Shown piece by piece: positions 1 to 10,187 of a stretch of DNA of 64,000 nt. The translations under genes and the position numbers were made by a program. The stretch is taken from assembly GCA_029225565.1 (NCBI GenBank), contig JAQXWS010000027.1, positions 7,585-71,584 on the forward strand. Reading direction: 5' to 3'. Source of the DNA: Eubacteriales bacterium. GTDB taxonomy: Bacteria > Bacillota > Clostridia > Oscillospirales > Acutalibacteraceae. Positions within the stretch are counted from its first letter, which is position 1; each line of letters begins with the position of its first letter. The notes under the pieces are model-generated. The model was not told the DNA's origin. It worked only from the letters and a program-made list of their open reading frames with translations, and did no database searches.

Positions 1-512
1 ACGCTTATCCTGACAGGAATATCGTTTTGGTTGCCGCAGATAAGCCCCCGGAGGACCCCGACAGCAACGCAGTTGCAAATTTTGGTATGGCTGTAGAGCA
101 TTTGCTGTCCGGTGGTCAGGGCGTGTATGTGTCCTATGACAGATTAATGCCGGCACTCTGTGTTACAAGCGCAGGTATTGACGACAAATTTTTGGCATTG
201 GATTCTACCTTGCCTCCGGTTAACAGTCGCAATATTATCGCCAAGAATGTGTTGATTGCGAATGCCTATGTCAATATGGATTGCTGTAATTACTGCCTTG
301 ATAATGTGGATGCTGTGCTGATTGGTATGTTTCACAGTGCCACGGTTCCACAAGGGGCAAAGGATTTGGCACACAGGGCCAAGAGTATGGGTATTCCTTG
401 CTGCTTTGTGACCCACAGGTTATCTGCGGATTACGCCACAGCAAGGGGTATTGACAATATCCTGACGGGCTGTACTATGGAAAACGCTTATGCAAGAATG
501 TTGCTGGATTAG
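1..512 (+). CDS. Asparaginase-domain protein, C-terminal part (5' truncated by window edge)
   Basis: Frame is open from the window start (AYPDRNIVLVAADKPPEDPDSNAVANF...). The 'DAVLIGMFHSAT' segment resembles the C-terminal half of clostridial asparaginase-like proteins. Confidence 0.55.
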   Translation, partial: AYPDRNIVLVAADKPPEDPDSNAVANFGMAVEHLLSGGQGVYVSYDRLMPALCVTSAGIDDKFLALDSTLPPVNSRNIIAKNVLIANAYVNMDCCNYCLDNVDAVLIGMFHSATVPQGAKDLAHRAKSMGIPCCFVTHRLSADYATARGIDNILTGCTMENAYARMLLD

Positions 513-533
513 AACATATTTATGGAGAATTTA

Positions 534-2462
534 ATGGATAAAAGTAGATTTTCGTACCCTGTTCCCCAAAAGAATATTCGTATTACAGACCGGTTTTGGA
601 GCGAGAGGCTGGAGGTGGTAAGGCGTAATGTCATACCCTATCAGTATCAAGCTCTCCACGATAATATTCCCGGCGCAGAAAAGAGCTACGCTATAGAGAA
701 TTTTAAAAAGGCTGTTGCCGTGTTGCGGGACAGAGCTTTGGGCAAATCCGTGCCTGTTTATCCCACCGACAAGTGGTATTACGGACAGGACGCACCTGAG
801 GGCGCTTTTCATGGTTGGGTGTTCCAGGATAGTGATGTGTACAAATGGCTGGAAGCTGTGGCATATTCCTTAATTAATCATTATGACCCCCAATTGTTTG
901 CCCAGGCAAGCGAGGTGATTGACCTTGTATGCTCTGCCCAGATGGATAACGGTTATCTGGATACTTTGTATATTATCAATGACCCATCCCAGGTGTTTAC
1001 CAATCTTCGCGATTTTCACGAGCTGTATTGTTTTGGACATTTGACCGAGGCCGCTGTTGCTTTTTTTGAGGCAACACAGGACCGCAGATTGCTGGATTCA
1101 GCTGTCAGATTTGCAGATTTATTATGCCGGGTGTTTGGAGATAACGGAAAAAAGGGATACCCCGGTCACGAGATAGCCGAGCTTGCTTTAGTCAAGCTAT
1201 ATGGCGTTACCGGAGCAAAAAAATATCTTGACCTGGCAGAGTTTTTTATTTGTCAGCGCGGAACAAAGCCCTACTACTATGATACCGAGCATAATACAAA
1301 AACTGACGGCGAGGGCTACCGTTACAACCAGGCACATTGTCAGCCCCGCCATCAGTATGAGGCTGTGGGACATGCTGTCAGAGGCGTTTATCTTTATTCC
1401 GGTATGGCGGATGTGGCAAGGCTGTGTGACGATGATGGTCTGTATTCTGCCTGCCGTCGTATTTGGGACAATATCTGTAACAGAAAACTATATATTACCG
1501 GAGGTATCGGCGCCACCGCAGACGGCGAGGCATTTTCTTACGACTATGATTTGCCAAATGACCTTGCATACAGTGAGACCTGCGCCTCCATTGGCCTTTC
1601 GATGTTTGCTTGCAGAATGGCTTGTATCAGCCCCGAGTCCAAGTATGGCGATGTTATGGAAAGGGCACTGTATAACACAATTCTGGCATCTATGAGCAGT
1701 GAGGGCACGGAATTCTTTTATGTTAATCCGTTGGAGGTTTTGCCCATCGCTTCTCACTGCGACAGCAGAAAAAGGCATGTAAAACCGGTACGCCAAAAAT
1801 GGTTTGGCTGTGCTTGCTGTCCTCCTAATTTGGCACGGTTTTTGACATCCTTGGGAACATATTGTTTTAGCTGCAGCGAGAATACTTTGTATATTCATCA
1901 GTATGTTGGCGCAGAGATAGATACGGATTTTGGCAATGTGAACATTGACTCAACTTATGCTTCCGATGGCAAAGTGTCCGTCACATTTTCTGCAAGCAGG
2001 CCATGTGAGTTAGCCTTGCGTATTCCCGGTTGGTGCAGAGATTTTTGCATTGATGTTCCATATACCGTTAGAGACGGCTATGCCTATGTTGCCGTAGATG
2101 GTGATATGACTATCAGCATGGATTTTGGTATCAGACCCAGATTGGTTGCCTGCTCCGGCAAGGTGCGTGCCAATGTAGGCAAGGCGGCAGTAGCATACGG
2201 ACCGATGATTTATTGTGCCGAGAGTGTGGATAACGGCGAGGATTTGCATTTGCTGTCCCTGGATGCAACTGCTGATTTGCGATACTGCGACGGTAGGATT
2301 ATCGCCAAGGGCTTTCGCACCGAGCCTCGGGAGGATTTGTATTATGACTATATTCCTTGCGACACTGTGCCGGTGGACATTACCATGATTCCGTATTACA
2401 CATGGGGCAATCGGGGCGAGAACGAAATGACAGTCTATATTTCTGTGGCAAAAAAACTTTAA
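534..2462 (+). CDS. Glycoside hydrolase family 127 (beta-L-arabinofuranosidase-like)
   Basis: Motifs FQDSDVYKWLEA, HELYCFGH, GHEIAELAL, VGHAVR, YSETCASIG and CACCPPN. GGAG SD lies 6 nt before ATG 534; the ORF track starts at 522. Confidence 0.9.
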   Translation: MDKSRFSYPVPQKNIRITDRFWSERLEVVRRNVIPYQYQALHDNIPGAEKSYAIENFKKAVAVLRDRALGKSVPVYPTDKWYYGQDAPEGAFHGWVFQDSDVYKWLEAVAYSLINHYDPQLFAQASEVIDLVCSAQMDNGYLDTLYIINDPSQVFTNLRDFHELYCFGHLTEAAVAFFEATQDRRLLDSAVRFADLLCRVFGDNGKKGYPGHEIAELALVKLYGVTGAKKYLDLAEFFICQRGTKPYYYDTEHNTKTDGEGYRYNQAHCQPRHQYEAVGHAVRGVYLYSGMADVARLCDDDGLYSACRRIWDNICNRKLYITGGIGATADGEAFSYDYDLPNDLAYSETCASIGLSMFACRMACISPESKYGDVMERALYNTILASMSSEGTEFFYVNPLEVLPIASHCDSRKRHVKPVRQKWFGCACCPPNLARFLTSLGTYCFSCSENTLYIHQYVGAEIDTDFGNVNIDSTYASDGKVSVTFSASRPCELALRIPGWCRDFCIDVPYTVRDGYAYVAVDGDMTISMDFGIRPRLVACSGKVRANVGKAAVAYGPMIYCAESVDNGEDLHLLSLDATADLRYCDGRIIAKGFRTEPREDLYYDYIPCDTVPVDITMIPYYTWGNRGENEMTVYISVAKKL

Positions 2463-2480
2463 AATTTTTCAAAAAATGTG

Positions 2481-2509
2481 TTGACACCTATCTAACAATC
2501 TGTTATTAT
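2481..2509 (+). promoter_or_regulatory. Sigma-A promoter of tRNA-Asn
   Basis: TTGACA (2481-2486), 17-nt spacer, TGn-TATTAT (2504-2509). Confidence 0.8.
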
Positions 2510-2537
2510 ATATAAGCACTTGATATGAGTGACACAT

Positions 2538-2613
2538 TCCTCTTTAGCTCAGTCGGTAGAGCACTCGGCTGTTAACCGAGTTGTCGTTGGTTCAAGTCCA
2601 ACAAGGGGAGCCA
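2538..2613 (+). tRNA. tRNA-Asn (GTT)
   Basis: 76 nt. Acceptor TCCTCTT/AAGGGGA, D arm TAGCTCAGTCGGTAGAGC, anticodon arm CTCGG-CTGTTAA-CCGAG, T loop GGTTCAAGTCC, encoded CCA. Confidence 0.97.
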
Positions 2614-2619
2614 AAAAAT

Positions 2620-2651
2620 AAAGCATCTGCAATAGCAGGTGCTTTATTTTT
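2620..2651 (+). terminator. Intrinsic terminator of tRNA-Asn
   Basis: AAAGCATCTGC-aata-GCAGGTGCTTT followed by a T-rich tract. Confidence 0.75.
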
Positions 2652-2653
2652 AT

Positions 2654-2857
2654 CCAATCCGAAGGATTGGTATGTAATCACGCTTCAGCGTGTATGTAAT
2701 CGCCGAAGGCGTATGGCATCACCTTAGCGTATGCAATCCTTCGTATTGATTACATTCATAATTTCATTATGATTACATACGCAATTAAAGTTGCGATTAC
2801 ATTCCGTCTGAAGACGGATTACATACAAGGCTTTGCCTTGATTGGCTTCGCTTGATT
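2654..2857. repeat. Composite branched palindrome: 4 forward and 4 reverse 8-nt linkers separated by variable hairpins
   Basis: Forward linkers at 2671, 2693, 2712 and 2730; reverse linkers at 2749, 2772, 2796 and 2818; hairpins sit between them (see findings). Confidence 0.9.
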
Positions 2858-2880
2858 TGAATTTTTGTTTCTGTTATACT
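2852..2880 (+). promoter_or_regulatory. Sigma-A promoter of the four-helix-bundle gene
   Basis: TTGATT (2852-2857), 17-nt spacer, TGn-TATACT (2875-2880), then GAGGTG SD and ATG 2899. Confidence 0.65.
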
Positions 2881-2898
2881 GTTTCAAGAGGTGAGAAT

Positions 2899-3255
2899 AT
2901 GAAAGAAAACCCTTTGATGAAATATTCGGAACAGTTGGCGGTTGAAATTGAGAAGATGTGCAAGTCTTTAGATAATAAAAAAGACAATGCGAATACAATT
3001 TTGCAAATTCGTAAATCTTCATCAAGTGTATTTGCTAACATTTCAGAAGCACAATATCCTCAAAGTTTACCTGATATGCTTTCTAAATTCAAAATTGCAA
3101 GAAAAGAATGTGTAGAAACTGAAGGTTGGTTAAAGCTATTACATTCTTCTGATGTAATTGATGAAGAAACTTTTAAAAAATACAGAAATATTTGTGGGAG
3201 AATACAAAGAATTTTGACTTCTTCCTGCATAACAATTGAAAGAAAAATCAAATAA
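2899..3255 (+). CDS. Four-helix-bundle protein (23S rRNA IVS protein / TIGR02436-like, Avd-related fold)
   Basis: 118 aa with QIRKSSSSVFANISEA...S..D...KFKIARKECVETEGWL, matching the family pattern Q..RS..S...NI.E...F..KL.IA..E..ET..WL. AT-rich relative to its neighbours. Confidence 0.88.
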   Translation: MKENPLMKYSEQLAVEIEKMCKSLDNKKDNANTILQIRKSSSSVFANISEAQYPQSLPDMLSKFKIARKECVETEGWLKLLHSSDVIDEETFKKYRNICGRIQRILTSSCITIERKIK

Positions 3256-3294
3256 TATGTAGTTTGATTTTCGTTACATAAACACATATTGGAT

Positions 3295-3340
3295 AAATCC
3301 GAACTTCACGTTTTTAGGCGATGGGTTCGGATTTTCTTTT
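3295..3340 (+). terminator. Terminator-like hairpin after the four-helix-bundle gene
   Basis: AAATCCGAAC (3295-3304) pairs with GTTCGGATTT (3325-3334), followed by a T tract. Confidence 0.55.
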
Positions 3341-3494
3341 TTACAAAATCAATATGTGCAATTACTTAACCTTAACATTCATTTTTTGATGCCTAATATT
3401 TATATTTGTGCTATAATGATATAAGAAAATCTTTGACAGAAAACTTAGGGAATATATTCTTTTACTGCTCTATAATGTGAGTGAGGTGAACGGA

Positions 3495-4790
3495 ATGGAT
3501 ATTTTGGAAGAACTGAACCGGGTTTCTATGTATATCGAGGAGCATATAACCGAGGATATAAGCATAGACGAGCTTGCAAAAATCACTTTGCAAAGCAGTG
3601 ACAGCTTTTCAAGATTATTTGGCTATATGGCAGGTATGACAATCAACGAATATATCAGGCGCCGCAAGCTGTCCCTTGCTGTTGACGATTTGCAAGACAG
3701 CGACAGCAAAATTATCGACATTGCTATGAAATACGGTTGGAACAGCTCGGATGCTTTCGCAAAGGCCTTTGTGAATCAGCACGGGATAACACCGACAAAT
3801 GCAAGAAAGAAAATTGGCTCTGTCAAAATATATCCGCCTGTTGCCTTTGATTTGAATATTAGAGGAGCAAAGGAAATGAATTTTAAGATTGTCGATGTAA
3901 GCAGCTTTGATGTGTTGGGATTGTCAAAGCGTTTTGACTGCCAAGCAGGTAATCGATTTAAGCAGGAGAATATTATGTGGTCGGTTGATGCCGAACATTA
4001 TCCCGAAAAAATATGCAATGGATATGACGGCGTTTGGTATGGAATTTTTGACAACGGCTCTTATTCTATTGCAAGGAATCAACAGGATGTTGATTCTCAT
4101 AATCTTGAGAGAATCACCGTACCTGCCGGCAAATACGCTGTGTTCACAACACAAAAGGGCGGCTACGCAGGAACAGAATTGCCCCGCCTGCACGAATTGA
4201 TTTTTAATTCATGGCTGCCCGAAACAAATTATAAAATAAAGAGTGAGTATATCGTTGAAGTTTATCATTTGGCAACGAATAAAGCAGAACGCAGAAAAAA
4301 CAGGTATTACGAAATGTGGATACCTATCGACGACAGCGAGACCGAGATTATTGATAAGCAAAAGCTGATTATTCGTACAGCAAATGCTGACGATGCGGAT
4401 GATATTTGCAGAATTTGCTGTGACGATTTGGGTTATAATTGCACAAGTGCTTTGATAGAACAACGACTGACAGAGCGAGACCTTGGCAGGGAACAGGTGT
4501 TTGTTGCAGAATATGATAACAGTGTGGTGGGCTTTGTTCATGTCGAAGATTATAAAACTCTGTATTTTGAGGAACTGGCAAATCTGCTTGGCTTAACTGT
4601 TTCAAAAAAATACAGACGGCAGGGCATTGCAACTGCGTTGATAAAGCAAGCCGAGTATTGGGCAAAGGAAAAGGGGATAAATATGATTAGACTGAACTCC
4701 GGCTCTGCAAGAAAGGAAGCCCATAGGTTCTATCGAAGCCTCGGCTTCGACAACGAAAAAGAGCAAATCAGATTTATGAAAAAGCTATAA
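3495..4790 (+). CDS. AraC-family regulator with GyrI-like effector domain fused to a C-terminal GNAT acetyltransferase
   Basis: N-terminal AraC HTH (YIRRRKLSLA, IAMKYGW.S.DAF.KAF), middle GyrI-like region (VPAGKYAVF), C-terminal GNAT (VSKKYRRQGIATALI, AHRFYRSLGF). GAGGTG SD before ATG 3495. Confidence 0.85.
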   Translation: MDILEELNRVSMYIEEHITEDISIDELAKITLQSSDSFSRLFGYMAGMTINEYIRRRKLSLAVDDLQDSDSKIIDIAMKYGWNSSDAFAKAFVNQHGITPTNARKKIGSVKIYPPVAFDLNIRGAKEMNFKIVDVSSFDVLGLSKRFDCQAGNRFKQENIMWSVDAEHYPEKICNGYDGVWYGIFDNGSYSIARNQQDVDSHNLERITVPAGKYAVFTTQKGGYAGTELPRLHELIFNSWLPETNYKIKSEYIVEVYHLATNKAERRKNRYYEMWIPIDDSETEIIDKQKLIIRTANADDADDICRICCDDLGYNCTSALIEQRLTERDLGREQVFVAEYDNSVVGFVHVEDYKTLYFEELANLLGLTVSKKYRRQGIATALIKQAEYWAKEKGINMIRLNSGSARKEAHRFYRSLGFDNEKEQIRFMKKL

Positions 4791-4799
4791 AAACCAATC

Positions 4800-4829
4800 A
4801 GCGCCTGCCATCCTCCAGGCGCTATTTTT
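4800..4829 (+). terminator. Intrinsic terminator
   Basis: AGCGCCTG/CAGGCGCT stem plus T tract. Confidence 0.65.
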
Positions 4830-4921
4830 ATTATAATTGTGGTCGCTTTTTGGCGAAAGTTATTTGACATTTGGTGCTTTATAGAATATTATTACATTGT
4901 ACTACTGCTATGGGAGGGTGT

Positions 4922-6100
4922 ATGATGACAAGGGAAAAAGAATATTTTATACACCTTTTGGCCGGGTTTTTGAACGGAGAGGCGTCGAAGCCCATGGCGG
5001 TGGATTGGACAAAAATATTTGAGTTAGCCGACAAACACAGTGTGCAAGCCATTGTGTCCCAGCAAATCAAATCCCTGCCGGCAGAAGCTGCCCCACAGGG
5101 CAAGTTAAAGTCCATGTTCAATCAGCAAATAGGCAGAACTATCCAAGCCTACGACAAAAGGTTGGAGGCTATTGCTGTTTTGGAAAGCTTTTTTTGTGAC
5201 AGCAAAACTGATTATATGTTCGTCAAGGGCGCCTGTATCAGCCGATACTATCCTGTGCCGGAGTACAGAACCGGCGGAGATATAGATGTTATAGTACGGG
5301 ATATTGACTTTGGCAGCGTTGTCCGGCTGTTACGCAATCATTGGCAGGTGAAGGATAACAGCAATGTGGCTGTGCTGACAGTTAATGATGTTGAGGTGGA
5401 GGTTCATTCTGCCTGCAGTATCCGGGGGCAGTATTTTGATGATATATTTGCCCTTGCAGAACAAATCGAAGAGCACAAGTACCAACTGGGTATGTACCAT
5501 CAGCTGTTGTATGTACTGCGTCACATCGGCAAGCACCTGAGCCATAGCGGAGCAGGTGTGAGAATGTTGATGGATGTTGATGTGCTGGTTAGAGCAATTC
5601 CTGATTTTGATAATCAGGTGTTTACCGATATGTGTATGCACGCTGATTGCCAAAAGATATGGAACACAGTCAGCTCCTTGGTGCACCTTTGGTTTGCAAC
5701 GCCTGTGGATTGGGACAGGCAGGTGGTGACAGACTCTGTTTTGATGAGCAAGCTTGAGCGCGTGTTTTTGGACGGAGGGGTGTTCGGCTTAAGCCAATTT
5801 GACCTGGGGGATTATTACATCACCAAGTCCCTTGGTACCGGGCAGCAGGTGACAGCCGGCACAAGAGCGAGAGCAGTGTTGAGGTTTATTTTTCCCGACA
5901 CGGCGGTCCTGTGCAATCAATTCGGTTATGCCAAAAAGCACAAATTCTTGCTGCCGGTAGCTTTTTGCCACAGGTTGTTTCTGGGCGTGTTTGCCCGTTT
6001 CGGACATTCAAAGAATACACTCAATGCCATACTCCGCAACGACAGCGACATTTCGGTGGTACACAGAGATTTGTTGCAGGAGCTGGGTATTACCGAATAG
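4922..6100 (+). CDS. Uncharacterised nucleotidyltransferase family protein (NTP_transf_5-like)
   Basis: FVKGA..SRYYPVPEYRTGGDIDVIV, VEVH, H..KH....G.GVRMLMD. GGAGGG SD before ATG 4922; TTGACA-17-TATTAT promoter at 4864-4892. Confidence 0.8.
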   Translation: MMTREKEYFIHLLAGFLNGEASKPMAVDWTKIFELADKHSVQAIVSQQIKSLPAEAAPQGKLKSMFNQQIGRTIQAYDKRLEAIAVLESFFCDSKTDYMFVKGACISRYYPVPEYRTGGDIDVIVRDIDFGSVVRLLRNHWQVKDNSNVAVLTVNDVEVEVHSACSIRGQYFDDIFALAEQIEEHKYQLGMYHQLLYVLRHIGKHLSHSGAGVRMLMDVDVLVRAIPDFDNQVFTDMCMHADCQKIWNTVSSLVHLWFATPVDWDRQVVTDSVLMSKLERVFLDGGVFGLSQFDLGDYYITKSLGTGQQVTAGTRARAVLRFIFPDTAVLCNQFGYAKKHKFLLPVAFCHRLFLGVFARFGHSKNTLNAILRNDSDISVVHRDLLQELGITE

Positions 6101-6114
6101 ATAGGATAAATATA

Positions 6115-6152
6115 AAAAATGCGACAGAGGAAGTAGCCTCCATCGCATTTTT
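6115..6152. terminator. Bidirectional terminator between convergent genes
   Basis: AAAAATGCGA...TCGCATTTTT with an inner GAGG/CCTC stem. Confidence 0.65.
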
Positions 6153-7109
6153 CTATTTTTCAAAGGGATATACAAGATTCATTTGCCGGCGGCATTCGTC
6201 CATAATCTCCATGCACGCCCGAGTAGAGCTGAAGGGAATGTATGACGATTCCTTTTTGCCCTGTCTGATTTCGTCGGCTACCCGATTGAATTCTGTAAGA
6301 TAGTCGGTTTTGCCCCGGAAAACCCGTTTGCCGTTGTCATTGGTTAAAGTTGCTTTGCCAGCAACATGGAACAGCGGCAGAACGATTTTGCCCCTTGTAC
6401 CGACTATGGTGCATTGCTCCTTTAGGGCGGCCAGGGACATTTTTAGCGTGCATTTTGCATTGCCGTAGTGCAGTACAACTGTTTCGCTGACATCAATACC
6501 GTTTTTTATTACTCCGTCACACTCTATTTTGTCCGGTGTGCCGAACAGATTGTAGCAGTAGGTTATGGGGTATATGCCTATGTCCAGTAATGCCCCACCC
6601 GCTGTTTCGGGGGTCAGAACACGGGAACTCTTGCTCATCATAAGACCCGGAAAAGCGTAGTCAATATCTACTGATACAGGGTCGCCGATTTCGCCGTCGG
6701 CAATCCACTTTTTTACTGTCAGCGCTACATCGCTGAACCATGTCCACATAGCCTCGGCAAAATAAACATTATGTTTTTTTGCATATTCTATCATTGTATC
6801 TACCTGGGCAGTGGTAACGCCTACGGGCTTTTCGCACAGGACGGGCTTGCCCAGCTCCATAGCTCGCAGGGCATATTCCATGTGGCTGGTATGCGGCGTA
6901 GCAATGTACACACCGTCCACATTATCTGCCAGTACGGCGCTGTCATAGTCGGTATATACCTGCGCGTTATGCTTTTTTGCAAAGGCACAGGCTTTGCTGT
7001 AAGTTCTGCCATATACCGCCGTGATTTGGTGGTCGCCTTTGAGTATGCTCCTTGCTGTGGATACGGCTATATTACCGTTACCTACATATAGCCATTTGAA
7101 TTTGCCCAT
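6153..7109 (-). CDS. Gfo/Idh/MocA family oxidoreductase
   Basis: VYIATPHTSH, GKPVLCEKP, EAMWT and GGALLDIGIY motifs. Confidence 0.92.
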   Translation of the reverse strand: MGKFKWLYVGNGNIAVSTARSILKGDHQITAVYGRTYSKACAFAKKHNAQVYTDYDSAVLADNVDGVYIATPHTSHMEYALRAMELGKPVLCEKPVGVTTAQVDTMIEYAKKHNVYFAEAMWTWFSDVALTVKKWIADGEIGDPVSVDIDYAFPGLMMSKSSRVLTPETAGGALLDIGIYPITYCYNLFGTPDKIECDGVIKNGIDVSETVVLHYGNAKCTLKMSLAALKEQCTIVGTRGKIVLPLFHVAGKATLTNDNGKRVFRGKTDYLTEFNRVADEIRQGKKESSYIPFSSTRACMEIMDECRRQMNLVYPFEK

Positions 7110-7218
7110 ATTATCACCTCATTACTTATGCCTTGATTATACCACAAATTATTTGCCGGTCAATACTGTTGCCCCGGCATCTTTATTGTGCTATATTATT
7201 GTTTGTGAGGTGTTGTAT

Positions 7219-7533
7219 ATGAAAAAAGTAAAAATTACGGTTGCCCGTATTACCACCTATCCGGACCTGATAGCAAAGTACGAAAATCCTATATCCCATG
7301 CCTGCTCTATGCAGGAGGGGGATGTGTTCGTTGCCAACGGTTGGCAAAAGCCGTCGGGTTTCTGTGACAGCGCTTGGGAAAGTATATCTCCCTTTGTTAT
7401 GACTCTCGCTCACGGCGGCGGTGATTTTTATGACGGGTGGATGCGCAATCCTTATTCTGCTATGATTTCCTGCAACGACGGCTTCAGACCTGTAAGCTTT
7501 TATCTTGAGACGCTTGATGAGGACGCAGAATAA
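7219..7533 (+). CDS. TIGR04076 family protein
   Basis: MKKVKITV...FCDSAWESI...MISCNDGFRPVSF pattern; GAGGTG SD before ATG 7219. Confidence 0.8.
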   Translation: MKKVKITVARITTYPDLIAKYENPISHACSMQEGDVFVANGWQKPSGFCDSAWESISPFVMTLAHGGGDFYDGWMRNPYSAMISCNDGFRPVSFYLETLDEDAE

Positions 7534-7596
7534 TACGGTGTAGTACGGTATTGATTTTTTGTTGCATTTTCGGCAGTAATGTATTATAATCTTTTT

Positions 7597-7657
7597 GTCA
7601 GTTCGCAAAATCCTGACCAGTCACATGCCCGTGGCTTCTAAAAACAAAACTAAGGAG
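7597..7657 (+). ncRNA. preQ1 class I riboswitch, translational type, with an extra hairpin in L3
   Basis: P1 GTCA/TGAC encloses loop GTTCGCAAAATCC; the tail AAAAACAAAACTAAGGAG overlaps the SD. It lies right after a TTGCAT-17-TATAAT promoter (7562-7590) and before a QueT gene. Confidence 0.75.
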
Positions 7658-7667
7658 AAAATTGAAA

Positions 7668-8201
7668 ATGAACAAAAAGACACTTTTTATTGCACAAACA
7701 GCAATAATCGCAGCAATGTATGCCGTACTCACCTATGCCCAAAACCTGATTTTGCCGGGCACAACATCAATGGCGGTTCAATTCCGGGTATCCGAGGCAC
7801 TTAATGTGCTGGCGCTGTTTACACCGGCTGCAATTCCCGGGCTCACAATCGGCTGTGTGCTATCCAATCTTTACAACATTGGCTCAGGCCTGCCGCTGGA
7901 TATGATATTCGGCTCTCTGGCTACCTTGGGCTCCGGGGTTTGTATGTACACTCTGCGCAATGTTAAGCTAAAGTCGTATCCTGCCTTGGCGATGCTTATG
8001 CCGGCAATTTGGAACGGCGTGGTAGTCGGCTGGGAGATAGAGTACTTTTTTATCGAGGGCGACTTTGAGTGGATTGGATTCTTGACTCAGGGCGGTTTGG
8101 TTGCCTTGGGCGAGGTTGCGGTTATGCTTACTTTGGGTACGGCGGTGTACTGTGTTATGGTTAAGCGCCGCTTGGACAAAAAGCTGTTCCCAACAAAATA
8201 A
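7668..8201 (+). CDS. queT: QueT family queuosine-precursor ECF transporter S component
   Basis: IAAMYAVLT, VQFRVSEAL..LALF, AIPGLTIGC..SN, DMIFGSLAT; hydrophobic throughout. Confidence 0.85.
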   Translation: MNKKTLFIAQTAIIAAMYAVLTYAQNLILPGTTSMAVQFRVSEALNVLALFTPAAIPGLTIGCVLSNLYNIGSGLPLDMIFGSLATLGSGVCMYTLRNVKLKSYPALAMLMPAIWNGVVVGWEIEYFFIEGDFEWIGFLTQGGLVALGEVAVMLTLGTAVYCVMVKRRLDKKLFPTK

Positions 8202-8211
8202 TGTGTATTAT

Positions 8212-8244
8212 CACGGCTACGAAATTTGTAGCCGTGTATTTTTT
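8212..8244 (+). terminator. Intrinsic terminator
   Basis: CACGGCTAC/GTAGCCGTG stem plus T tract. Confidence 0.7.
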
Positions 8245-8367
8245 ATCCCTGCCACGCCGGTTAACAAATACTTTTTGACAGCCGGTACCTTTGTGATGTA
8301 TAATATATATGCAAAGTGTATTGCATATAGATTTAGTAGTATTTTTAATCGAAAAGGGGGATTAAAT

Positions 8368-9051
8368 ATGAAATACGAAATTAAAGGCGGCAATTTTCCC
8401 GTGCTGGTGTGCCAGGTTGAGCCAAACGAGACAATGATTACCGAAGGTGGCGGCATGAGCTGGATGTCACCTAATATGAAAATGGATACAACCGGTGGTG
8501 GCTTGGGCAAAATGCTGGGCAGATTGGTAACCCAGGAGTCAATATTCCAAAACAAATATACTGCAATCGGCGGAGTGGGCGAAATTGCCTTTGCCAGCAG
8601 CTTTCCGGGGGATATTGTTCCGTTAGAAATCGGACCCGGCAAGGAATATATTTGCCAAAAGAGTGCATTCCTTGCATCTACGGCAGGAGTTGACCTTTCC
8701 GTTTACTTCAGAAAAAAGCTGGGGGCAGGTCTTTTCGGCGGCGAGGGATTTATTATGCAAAAGCTTGCCGGCAACGGTATTGCATTCATCGAGATTGACG
8801 GTACCGCAATCAAGTATCAGTTAGCACCCGGACAGCAAATTATTGTTGATACAGGACATGTTGTTATGATGGAGGCTACTTGCTCGATGGATGTTCAGAC
8901 TGTCAAGGGAGCAAAGAATATTTTCTTCGGCGGCGAGGGACTGTTCAATACTGTTGTTACCGGACCTGGCGAGGTGGTTCTCCAGACAATGCCTGTTGTA
9001 AAGCTGGCTGAAGCTATTATTCCTTACATTCCAACCGGCAACTCAAACTAA
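8368..9051 (+). CDS. AIM24 / TIGR00266 family protein
   Basis: EGGGMSWMS, TQESIFQNKY, FGGEGFIMQKL.G.G..F and FFGGEGLFNT..TGPG motifs. Confidence 0.9.
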   Translation: MKYEIKGGNFPVLVCQVEPNETMITEGGGMSWMSPNMKMDTTGGGLGKMLGRLVTQESIFQNKYTAIGGVGEIAFASSFPGDIVPLEIGPGKEYICQKSAFLASTAGVDLSVYFRKKLGAGLFGGEGFIMQKLAGNGIAFIEIDGTAIKYQLAPGQQIIVDTGHVVMMEATCSMDVQTVKGAKNIFFGGEGLFNTVVTGPGEVVLQTMPVVKLAEAIIPYIPTGNSN

Positions 9052-9068
9052 TATATACAGAACGCTCT

Positions 9069-9176
9069 TTAGAACGCTCTTTGCGAGCGTTCTTTTTTGC
9101 GTTTGTGTGGGGTTTTGTCCTTTGCAATGGCGCAGGCCAGTGCGCTTACAGTTATATTCAGCTCGCAGGGATTCAC
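9069..9176 (-). pseudogene. Truncated DUF6774-like small protein fragment
   Basis: GTG start reads MNPCELNITVSALACAIAKDKTP and then runs into the opposite-strand terminator. The start resembles the 'MNPCELT..I.ALA..IA' small protein family (from recall). Confidence 0.45.
9072..9098 (+). terminator. Intrinsic terminator
   Basis: GAACGCTC/GAGCGTTC stem plus T6. Confidence 0.7.
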
Positions 9177-9343
9177 ATTTACACCACTTTTCGTAAATAA
9201 TAAATTAGAAAACAGGGCAAAAAACAGAGAAAAATAAAGAAAAAAAGAGCAATCCCAAATTATTTTAATTTTGTCCTTGACTATTTTGTTCCCTCGTGAT
9301 ATTATATTCCAGCATTGAAAAAGATTTATTGGAGGAAAAGATT

Positions 9344-9772
9344 ATGTCAACATTTATGCCAAAAGCTGACGAAATCCAGCGCAAGTGGTATGTAATCGAC
9401 GCTGCAGACAAGCCACTCGGTAGAGTTGCTGCAGAGGCTGCCGTTCTTCTCAGAGGCAAGCACAAGCCGGTATTCACACCAAATGTAGATTGCGGCGATT
9501 TCGTTATTATCATTAACACAGACAAGGCTGTACTCACAGGTGACAAGCTTAACAAAAAGCTTTATCAGCACCACACCGGATATATCGGTAACCTCAAGGA
9601 GGTAAAGTACGGCACACTTATGCAGGAAAAGAGCGATTTTGCTATGCAGCTTGCTGTTAAGGGTATGATCCCTGACACCACACTGGGCAGAAAGCAGCTC
9701 ACCAGATGCAAGATTTACAAGAACGCAGAACACAAGCACGAGGCTCAGCAGCCTGAAGCTTGGGAAATGTAA
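9344..9772 (+). CDS. rplM: 50S ribosomal protein L13
   Basis: RKWYVIDA..KPLGRVA, GKHKPVFTPNVDCGD; GGAGG SD; TTGACT-17-TATTAT promoter at 9277-9305. Confidence 0.98.
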   Translation: MSTFMPKADEIQRKWYVIDAADKPLGRVAAEAAVLLRGKHKPVFTPNVDCGDFVIIINTDKAVLTGDKLNKKLYQHHTGYIGNLKEVKYGTLMQEKSDFAMQLAVKGMIPDTTLGRKQLTRCKIYKNAEHKHEAQQPEAWEM

Positions 9773-9788
9773 GGGAGGTATATAGATT

Positions 9789-10187
9789 ATGTACGAGACA
9801 AATCCTTATTTCTACGGAACAGGCAGAAGAAAAGAATCTGTAGCTCGTGTACGCGTTTATGCAGGTACAGGCAAGATTATCATCAACGACAGAGACATCG
9901 ACGATTACTTCGGTCTTGACACTCTCAAGCTCATCGTTCGTCAGCCTCTTGCACTTACAGACACAACAGAGAAGTTCGACATCATCTGCAGAGTTAGCGG
10001 CGGCGGTGTTTCCGGTCAGGCCGGTGCTATCCGTCACGGTCTCTCCAGAGCCCTTCTTCAGTATGACGAGTCACTTCGTCCTGCACTCAAGAAGGCAGGC
10101 TTCCTTACTCGTGACCCTCGTATGAAGGAGAGAAAGAAGTACGGTTTGAAAGCTGCGAGAAGAGCACCCCAGTTCAGCAAGAGATAA
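9789..10187 (+). CDS. rpsI: 30S ribosomal protein S9
   Basis: [44 protein letters not shown]. Confidence 0.98.

Follow-up and report, generated by a model that had tools for sequence, protein, structure and literature searches.

A two-fold-symmetric array of constant linkers and variable hairpins heads a tRNA-flank cassette with a 23S_rRNA_IVP-family gene in gut Oscillospirales

The window, a stretch of 64,000 nucleotides from an Eubacteriales genome of the family Acutalibacteraceae (GCA_029225565.1, contig JAQXWS010000027.1), carries a compact module on its forward strand in which a tRNA-Asn gene, a putative terminator, an array of short repeated words, a putative promoter and a gene for a 118-amino acid protein of the 23S_rRNA_IVP family (hereafter IVP) follow one another in this order. 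The tRNA-Asn (GTT) gene occupies positions 2538–2613 (ARAGORN; Rfam tRNA, 69.8 bits), and the module starts at its last base. An A-tract, an 11-bp hairpin and a T-tract follow at 2614–2651 (inverted repeat I2, 17 nt, 94% complementary); together they resemble a bidirectional intrinsic terminator, and a simple terminator scan gave no score to this segment. The array, which is 190 nt long and lies within 2654–2857, is the core of the module. Downstream of its last hairpin, a promoter-like site with the arrangement TTGATT-17-TATACT and a TG (2852–2880) probably drives the IVP gene. The same arrangement was found in other copies of the array, and in most of them the terminal hairpin contributes the −35 hexamer through its 3' arm and tail, whereas in the window the hexamer comes after the hairpin. 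The protein encoded at 2899–3255 matches PF05635 with 73.7 bits (cut-off 33.8; E 1.6e-20) and TIGR02436 with 76.8 bits (cut-off 24), belongs to the A-type clade of the IVP tree described below, and has a single solved relative, the uncharacterised structure PDB 2RLD (E 6e-13). The cassette ends in a tail, TAGTTTGATTTTCGTTACATAAACACA (3258–3285), with a homologue at another locus (L043), and after this tail the ancestral sequence of the tRNA-Asn flank resumes. The initial annotation had treated the array as an isolated structure; it is instead the non-coding head of a tRNA-flank cassette that also holds a matching protein gene. Two accessory-type genes lie behind the cassette, one for a 437-amino acid fusion of AraC-HTH, GyrI-like/Cass2 and GNAT domains (3477–4790) and one for a 409-amino acid NTP_transf_5 nucleotidyltransferase (4871–6100); both look like integron-style cargo.

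The array is composed of four TATGTAAT-like words followed by four words of the form ATTACAT[AT], with small self-complementary spacers between them. It opens with the first hairpin, CCAATCC-GAA-GGATTGG (2654–2670; inverted repeat I15), which is conserved across the A type. The left half (2671–2737) contains linkers L1 and L2 (both TATGTAAT; 2671–2678 and 2693–2700), L3 (TATGGCAT; 2712–2719) and L4 (TATGCAAT; 2730–2737), all read on the forward strand, with hairpins at 2679–2692 and 2701–2711 and an unpaired spacer at 2720–2729. The centre segment, CCTTCGTATTG (2738–2748), is complementary to the 5' arm and loop of the first hairpin, such that positions 2734–2748 and 2655–2669 constitute an inverted repeat of 15 nt with 93% complementarity (I3). 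In the right half (2749–2825), the reverse-complement words R1 and R3 (ATTACATT; 2749–2756 and 2796–2803) and R2 and R4 (ATTACATA; 2772–2779 and 2818–2825) alternate with hairpins at 2757–2771, 2780–2795 and 2804–2817. The terminal hairpin, CAAGGC-TTT-GCCTTG with an appended ATT (2826–2843), is the most conserved part of both A- and B-type arrays.

All eight words lie exactly, to the base, where they had first been placed. An independent segmentation also recovered the small hairpins that had been listed, each of them perfect except at 2720–2729, and a repeat search returned inverted repeats I15–I17 among them. The spacer at 2720–2729 had been described as weak, and the segmentation found no pairing in it. 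This weakness is a strain-level mutation: in three other pig-gut runs (X2, X6 and X9) a C>T change at position 2728 restores the hairpin CAC-CTTA-GTG. In one contig from X2, 83 other bases substitute for most of the right half (within window positions 2756–2850).

The repeat search grouped the words into direct families D1 and D3 with a spacing of 22–24 nt, and Tandem Repeats Finder reported nothing for the array, the units of which are too dissimilar. The 64 kb contain six exact TATGTAAT words, and four of them fall inside a 155-nt stretch of the array, which is also the sole cluster of seven matches to this word (at most one mismatch) in the 1.76-Mb assembly. Fold z-scores against dinucleotide shuffles ranged from −5.5 to −7.2, whether the array was folded as RNA or DNA and on either strand. 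Chance clustering of words was rejected on account of both the word clustering and the z-scores. The view that the array is neither CRISPR-like nor a simple inverted repeat is borne out: a CRISPR array has direct repeats of 23–50 nt, unique spacers of similar length and a single orientation, whereas here 8-nt words form two blocks of opposite orientation, in which palindromic spacers of 10–17 nt separate the words.

The array in the window represents a single copy of a two-fold-symmetric element that is widespread and essentially undescribed. Every copy has the same grammar, consisting of a first hairpin, n units of linker plus hairpin, a centre, n units of inverted linker plus hairpin, and a conserved last hairpin; left and right linker counts are equal or off by one. 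Both the number of units and their content vary between copies and strains. The linkers are nearly invariant within a type, and the right half is complementary to the left in every type, among them A (TATGTAAT), B (TATATCAT), C/D ((G)ATGAAAT), E (GTTATAT), F (GTGAAG) and many more, with ATGAAATC listed as another type word of the family. Conservation among copies is confined to the linkers and the two end hairpins, and the stems drift. That the hairpins change in sequence and keep their pairing, as had been noted for the window, holds throughout the family, since 91–95% of the mirrored positions in 206 unique spacers are Watson-Crick. Covariation was also detected by RNAalifold in 21 B-type copies, where 20 of 55 consensus pairs show double compensatory changes, and compensatory variants of the terminal hairpin were observed as well (CAATGC..GCATTG and CACGGC..GCCGTG). 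The longest complementary run between the centre and the first hairpin has a family mean of 9.9 nt versus 5.7 nt in the control, and this pairing covaries too. The loops are mirrored: on the top strand, those of the left half read G..A and those of the right half T..C, which makes the units true inverted copies. The spacing of the linkers is continuous between 19 and 29 nt and has no helical phasing, which favours looped-out spacers over a rigid array bound as duplex.

Nested pairing of the linkers (L1 with R4 through L4 with R1) had been proposed to give a ladder of stacked four-way junctions. Such a ladder is the RNAalifold consensus of the 21 B-type copies, and it is the minimum free energy structure predicted from the single sequence of one copy (L046), as RNA and as DNA and for both strands. 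It is not the predicted optimum for the copy in the window, for which a long imperfect hairpin was computed at −67.7 kcal/mol compared to −48.9 kcal/mol for the ladder as RNA (the hairpin being about 19 kcal/mol more stable), and at −42.1 compared to −32.0 kcal/mol as DNA. The long hairpin wins in this copy because two opposite spacers are partly complementary by chance. The pairing of the first hairpin with the centre is a further competitor of the ladder and prevails in some copies. The nested register itself is not singled out by the sequences, as left-right complementarity is equal in every register: all combinations of left and right linkers are about 0.9 complementary, and Fisher tests on the variant positions were not significant. 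The predicted ladder is a well-supported possibility at the level of the family rather than a demonstrated structure.

The 19-mer at the right end of the array, CAAGGCTTCGCCTTGATTT, has exact matches in more than 120 contigs of gut MAGs from Oscillospirales, with labels such as Acutalibacteraceae, Oscillospiraceae, Ruminococcus and Faecousia. When two mismatches were tolerated, the element was found in 59 of 401 Oscillospirales genomes, which belong to 36 of 178 genera, with 1–10 copies each. At least 12 copies were found in a related genome (G040) behind different tRNAs, some of them in tandem with the terminator included, several copies occur in other genomes, and copy number differs greatly between congeners. 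A tRNA gene on the same strand ends directly in front of 68 of the 94 copies that have enough upstream sequence, and these tRNAs represent 16 isoacceptors. In all, 72% of copies stand directly behind a tRNA or tmRNA gene, the latter in one case, and some of the remaining copies come after a tRNA 3' fragment or another array. Identical terminators recur behind different tRNAs across genomes and are repeated along with the array in tandem copies, which indicates that the terminator is part of the element. Phage and plasmid collections gave no blastn match and IMG/VR contained no exact right-end 19-mer; an origin from a phage or plasmid was rejected on these grounds.

All open reading frames within 3.5 kb of 120 loci were clustered, and the IVP gene was the sole recurrent neighbour, starting about 43 nt past the right end at 32 of the loci (27%); no recombinase or transposase was recurrent within this distance. 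Each of the ten array-rich genomes tested encodes IVP. Together these ten genomes have 25 IVP genes, of which 17 are preceded by a tRNA and 20 by a dyad word array, with many different words in use. Three IVP genes are present in the genome of the window (G000) behind three array types, A, B and C; in each case a tRNA or a repeat of a tRNA 3' end comes first, then a terminator and then the array. The second of these genes, behind tRNA-Cys and the B-type array, is split between the start of contig C13 and the end of contig C34, which abut inside it; the assembly breaks at this repeat-associated locus. Among IVP genes outside the order, taken from a sample of the phylum, a tRNA is found upstream of 1 in about 27, and most have neither tRNA nor array; the dyad-word score has a background of about 25% and is a weak detector when used alone.

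The linker type of the array corresponds to the clade of the protein. In the IVP tree, 12 of 12 A-type IVPs fall into one clade with a support of 100/100, and types C–F belong to a separate deep clade. When the linker types were mapped as labels on this tree, 8 changes were needed compared to 17.5 for shuffled labels, a value matched by none of 200 shuffles. Linkers that are constant within a type, spacers that vary and a protein that diversifies along with them are the hallmark of a protein and its cognate site. The correlation could also arise from linkage alone, that of type with clade, as the array is adjacent to the gene and co-inherited with it. To our knowledge, this 118-amino acid helical bundle has no DNA- or RNA-binding or catalytic activity assigned to it. 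The family is called uncharacterised in the papers searched, none of which ties IVP to tRNA flanks or repeat arrays.

Our preferred reading, held tentatively and with somewhat less than even confidence, is that the array is a folded cis-element that the IVP protein recognises as its cognate ligand, in a tRNA-flank cassette that is semi-mobile. The array would be the cis-acting head of this small cassette, which occupies the 3' flank of Oscillospirales tRNA and tmRNA genes. Once looped out of the duplex, as either DNA strand or possibly as a rare read-through RNA, each variable spacer would close on itself, and the constant 8–10-nt linkers of the left half would be free to pair with their right-half counterparts. 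Four-way junctions would connect the short helices into a compact rod. With respect to the form of the array, we lean towards looped-out DNA. The fixed and mutually exclusive linker types would serve as recognition sites for the cassette's own IVP/Avd-like four-helix-bundle protein, and the promoter of its gene would start in the last hairpin. Protein and array may act as a cognate pair in the manner of RAYT and REP or Rep and iterons, most likely for maintenance of the cassette or its spread to other tRNA flanks. Such spread would leave gene-less 'solo' arrays behind, and the pair may also control the adjacent promoter. We infer binding of IVP to the array, activity of the folded form and movement of the cassette.

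Several known systems share parts of this organisation, and REPIN-RAYT would be the nearest functional analogy. REP and BIME (REPIN) elements are likewise dispersed extragenic palindromes that follow terminators and form inverted pairs, and they come in several sequence classes per genome, each with its own single-copy protein gene beside a cognate copy. In contrast to the window family, in which only the linkers are conserved in sequence, REP hairpins are sequence-conserved; RAYT is an HUH Y1 transposase rather than a four-helix bundle, and the element described here is specific in its position to tRNA and tmRNA 3' ends. Membership in REP/RAYT was rejected because the Y1 transposase family (PF01797) has no match in the genome of the window or in G040, the most copy-rich genome, the stems vary (206 unique spacers), and the only recurrent neighbour is IVP. 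Integron attC sites were rejected as well, given that no GTTRRRY core was found among the conserved positions, that the array lies 5' of the gene, and that no recombinase recurs within 3.5 kb.

Intervening sequences that carry an open reading frame are found in the 16S and 23S rRNA genes of Leptospira and Coxiella. They have also been described in CPR bacteria (PMC11270868). These sequences have in common with the cassette a 23S_rRNA_IVP protein, an inverted-repeat structure and attachment to a stable RNA, but they sit inside an rRNA helix with the open reading frame in the stem loop, whereas the element in the window follows a tRNA and a terminator and has its open reading frame outside the dyad. 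As the element has its own terminator and promoter, nothing implies that it is cut out of a precursor by RNase III-type processing. Plasmid iteron origins and parC-type centromeres resemble the array in having short words spaced by about 22 nt in direct and inverted sets, with an adjacent gene for a small protein (Rep or ParR) whose specificity co-varies with the word. Unlike in those systems, spacers in the window family are self-complementary and variable in length, many chromosomal copies are located behind tRNAs, and replication and partition genes are absent.

An alternative that we regard as unlikely is that the array works as duplex DNA. The linkers would be operators for IVP or another transcription factor in a control region upstream of the cassette promoter, the array would insulate this promoter from the strong tRNA promoter, and the palindromic spacers would be incidental or would stop read-through. 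Repeated words in a dyad array are a typical feature of operators and iterons, and the array always lies between the terminator and the promoter, with the −35 hexamer in or just after the tail of the last hairpin. Moreover, at 15 of the loci on genome contigs the same promoter and an operator-like palindrome precede diverse cargo genes. The palindrome, CAAATAAGAATTTG, is located right after the −10 box of the array, about 40 nt past the array in for example L046, L069 and L110, and looks like a shared operator; the cargo genes that follow it encode unrelated GNAT, methyltransferase, Zn-ribbon and XRE proteins. Nevertheless, a duplex operator needs neither the strong selection for self-pairing of the spacers nor the stable loop types that were observed. 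The spacing of 19–29 nt without helical phasing also argues against this explanation, as do the solo copies in G040, which have neither a −10 box nor a gene behind them.

We think it quite improbable that the array functions as a structured non-coding RNA related to Gut-1, made either as a read-through product of the tRNA gene or under a promoter of its own, and acting, with or without IVP, as a sponge, scaffold or 3' trailer. The closest described object is Gut-1 (RF01706; Weinberg et al., 2010, PMC2864571), presented in the text consulted as an orphan non-coding RNA known from environmental sequences only, and its authors consider it 'certainly RNA'; this text makes no mention of two-fold symmetry, tRNA linkage or an IVP gene. 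Gut-1 resembles the arrays in having three small covarying hairpins and a constant short linker, (G)UGAAAU, and it is found in the same organisms and behind tRNA genes. Sister arrays with the UGAAAU linker score 50–66 bits against the Gut-1 model (gathering score 50), and within the superfamily Gut-1 corresponds to arrays of the C/D type, namely to their left half. It differs from the array in the window in its linker, which is TATGTAAT in the latter, and the published motif covers one half only. A permissive Rfam scan of window positions 2000–3600 (E up to 10) returned only the tRNA and noise, with no Gut-1. The window type has no Rfam match, and the novelty claimed in the initial annotation is lessened by the orphan Gut-1, which is the left half of a sister type. 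The array in the window is a new, strongly constrained linker type of a poorly known family.

Other findings bear on transcription. The loop types are GNRA-like, and metatranscriptome contigs contain family members, in study P12 with a moderate summed depth of 20–300 compared to 0–10 for the downstream gene, these data being assembler contigs that carry no strand information and may include DNA. In two cDNA-based runs, however, the depth of the array was only about 2, versus 400–10,000 for tRNAs. The terminator-like hairpin in front of every array and the promoter behind it place the array in a transcriptional gap, which disfavours an RNA, and the mirrored asymmetry of the loops between the two halves is not explained by a single transcript. 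As an indicator of the active strand, G-T mismatches were compared with A-C mismatches. The counts were 25:12 for the left half, 6:8 for the right half and 10:6 in a second count per hairpin; neither comparison was significant.

It is just as improbable, in our estimation, that the array is a cluster of recombination sites or a non-autonomous mobile element for which IVP is merely frequent cargo. The recombinase would be encoded elsewhere, either as a tRNA-targeting integrase or as a single-strand DNA enzyme of the kind that acts on integron attC or in IS200/IS605. The 3' ends of tRNA and tmRNA genes are classical integrase targets, the distribution of the element is patchy, and it occurs in tandem copies and in stacked cassettes, such as those in L043, where a second cassette follows the homologous tail. 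Short inserts were found behind tRNA-Asn and tRNA-Leu in G001 (L170, contig C61) and in the genome of the window (G000, contig C34, 22700–23000), bracketed by 18–20-nt direct repeats of the tRNA 3' end. Judged by their sequence, these repeats are what site-specific integration into the two tRNA genes leaves behind, and at both loci they suggest conventional integrase activity instead of a process driven by IVP. With regard to a possible origin of the array as a remnant of integrase arm sites (attP), there was no integrase and no phage or viral match, and neighbouring inserts do have degenerate or clear tRNA 3'-end repeats. On the other side, no recombinase recurs near the 120 loci, the Y1 transposase is absent from both genomes in which it was sought, phage, plasmid and viral collections contain no matches, and the element stands behind a dozen different tRNAs in a single genome, which is not the behaviour of a sequence-specific integrase. 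A recombination-site cluster also leaves the match between linker type and IVP clade unexplained.

Comparison with related genomes provided further information on mobility. The orthologous tRNA-Asn gene has no cassette in G001, G033, G063, G013 and G009. In G001, a repeat of the tRNA 3' end is joined directly to the sequence that begins at position 3286 in the window, and in G033 a different gene occupies the orthologous flank. Empty sites were also sought in the genus of G040, where the assemblies of relatives break at the repeat or lose synteny. No target-site duplication was seen, and four pig-gut DNA runs contained no excision or inversion variants of the array; they did contain point variants and one strain with another right half.

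If the arrays are ligands of IVP, as our preferred reading of a cognate pair holds, a binding assay with matched and mismatched types would give the family its first biochemical handle. Two orphans would become testable together, namely Gut-1, which has been without a function since 2010, and the 23S_rRNA_IVP/four-helix-bundle family. This family includes Avd of diversity-generating retroelements and the proteins encoded in rRNA intervening sequences. The element would be a natural nucleic acid built almost wholly of stacked four-way junctions, and it could partly explain why small accessory-gene cassettes accumulate at the tRNA flanks of gut Clostridia. A broader proposal, which we put forward as speculation with a low chance of being correct, is that IVP/Avd-like bundles read junction-ladder nucleic acids in a sequence-specific manner. 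Such bundles and their arrays would then make up an unrecognised class of selfish cassettes that home to the ends of stable-RNA genes, to tRNA and tmRNA flanks in the present case and to rRNA helices for classical intervening sequences, with no conventional transposase or integrase.

Two individual copies have additional features. In G040 (L028; contig C9, 20600–22000), an insert of about 330 nt splits an array just past its first linker; this insert is bounded by inverted repeats of about 20 nt, GGCAGAGCA(A/G)ATTC(A/G)AAC, and looks like an unrelated miniature transposable element. At locus L057, a DUF3800-XI RNA motif (RF02975, 54 bits) was detected at positions 3870–3917, about 170 nt downstream of a B-type array.
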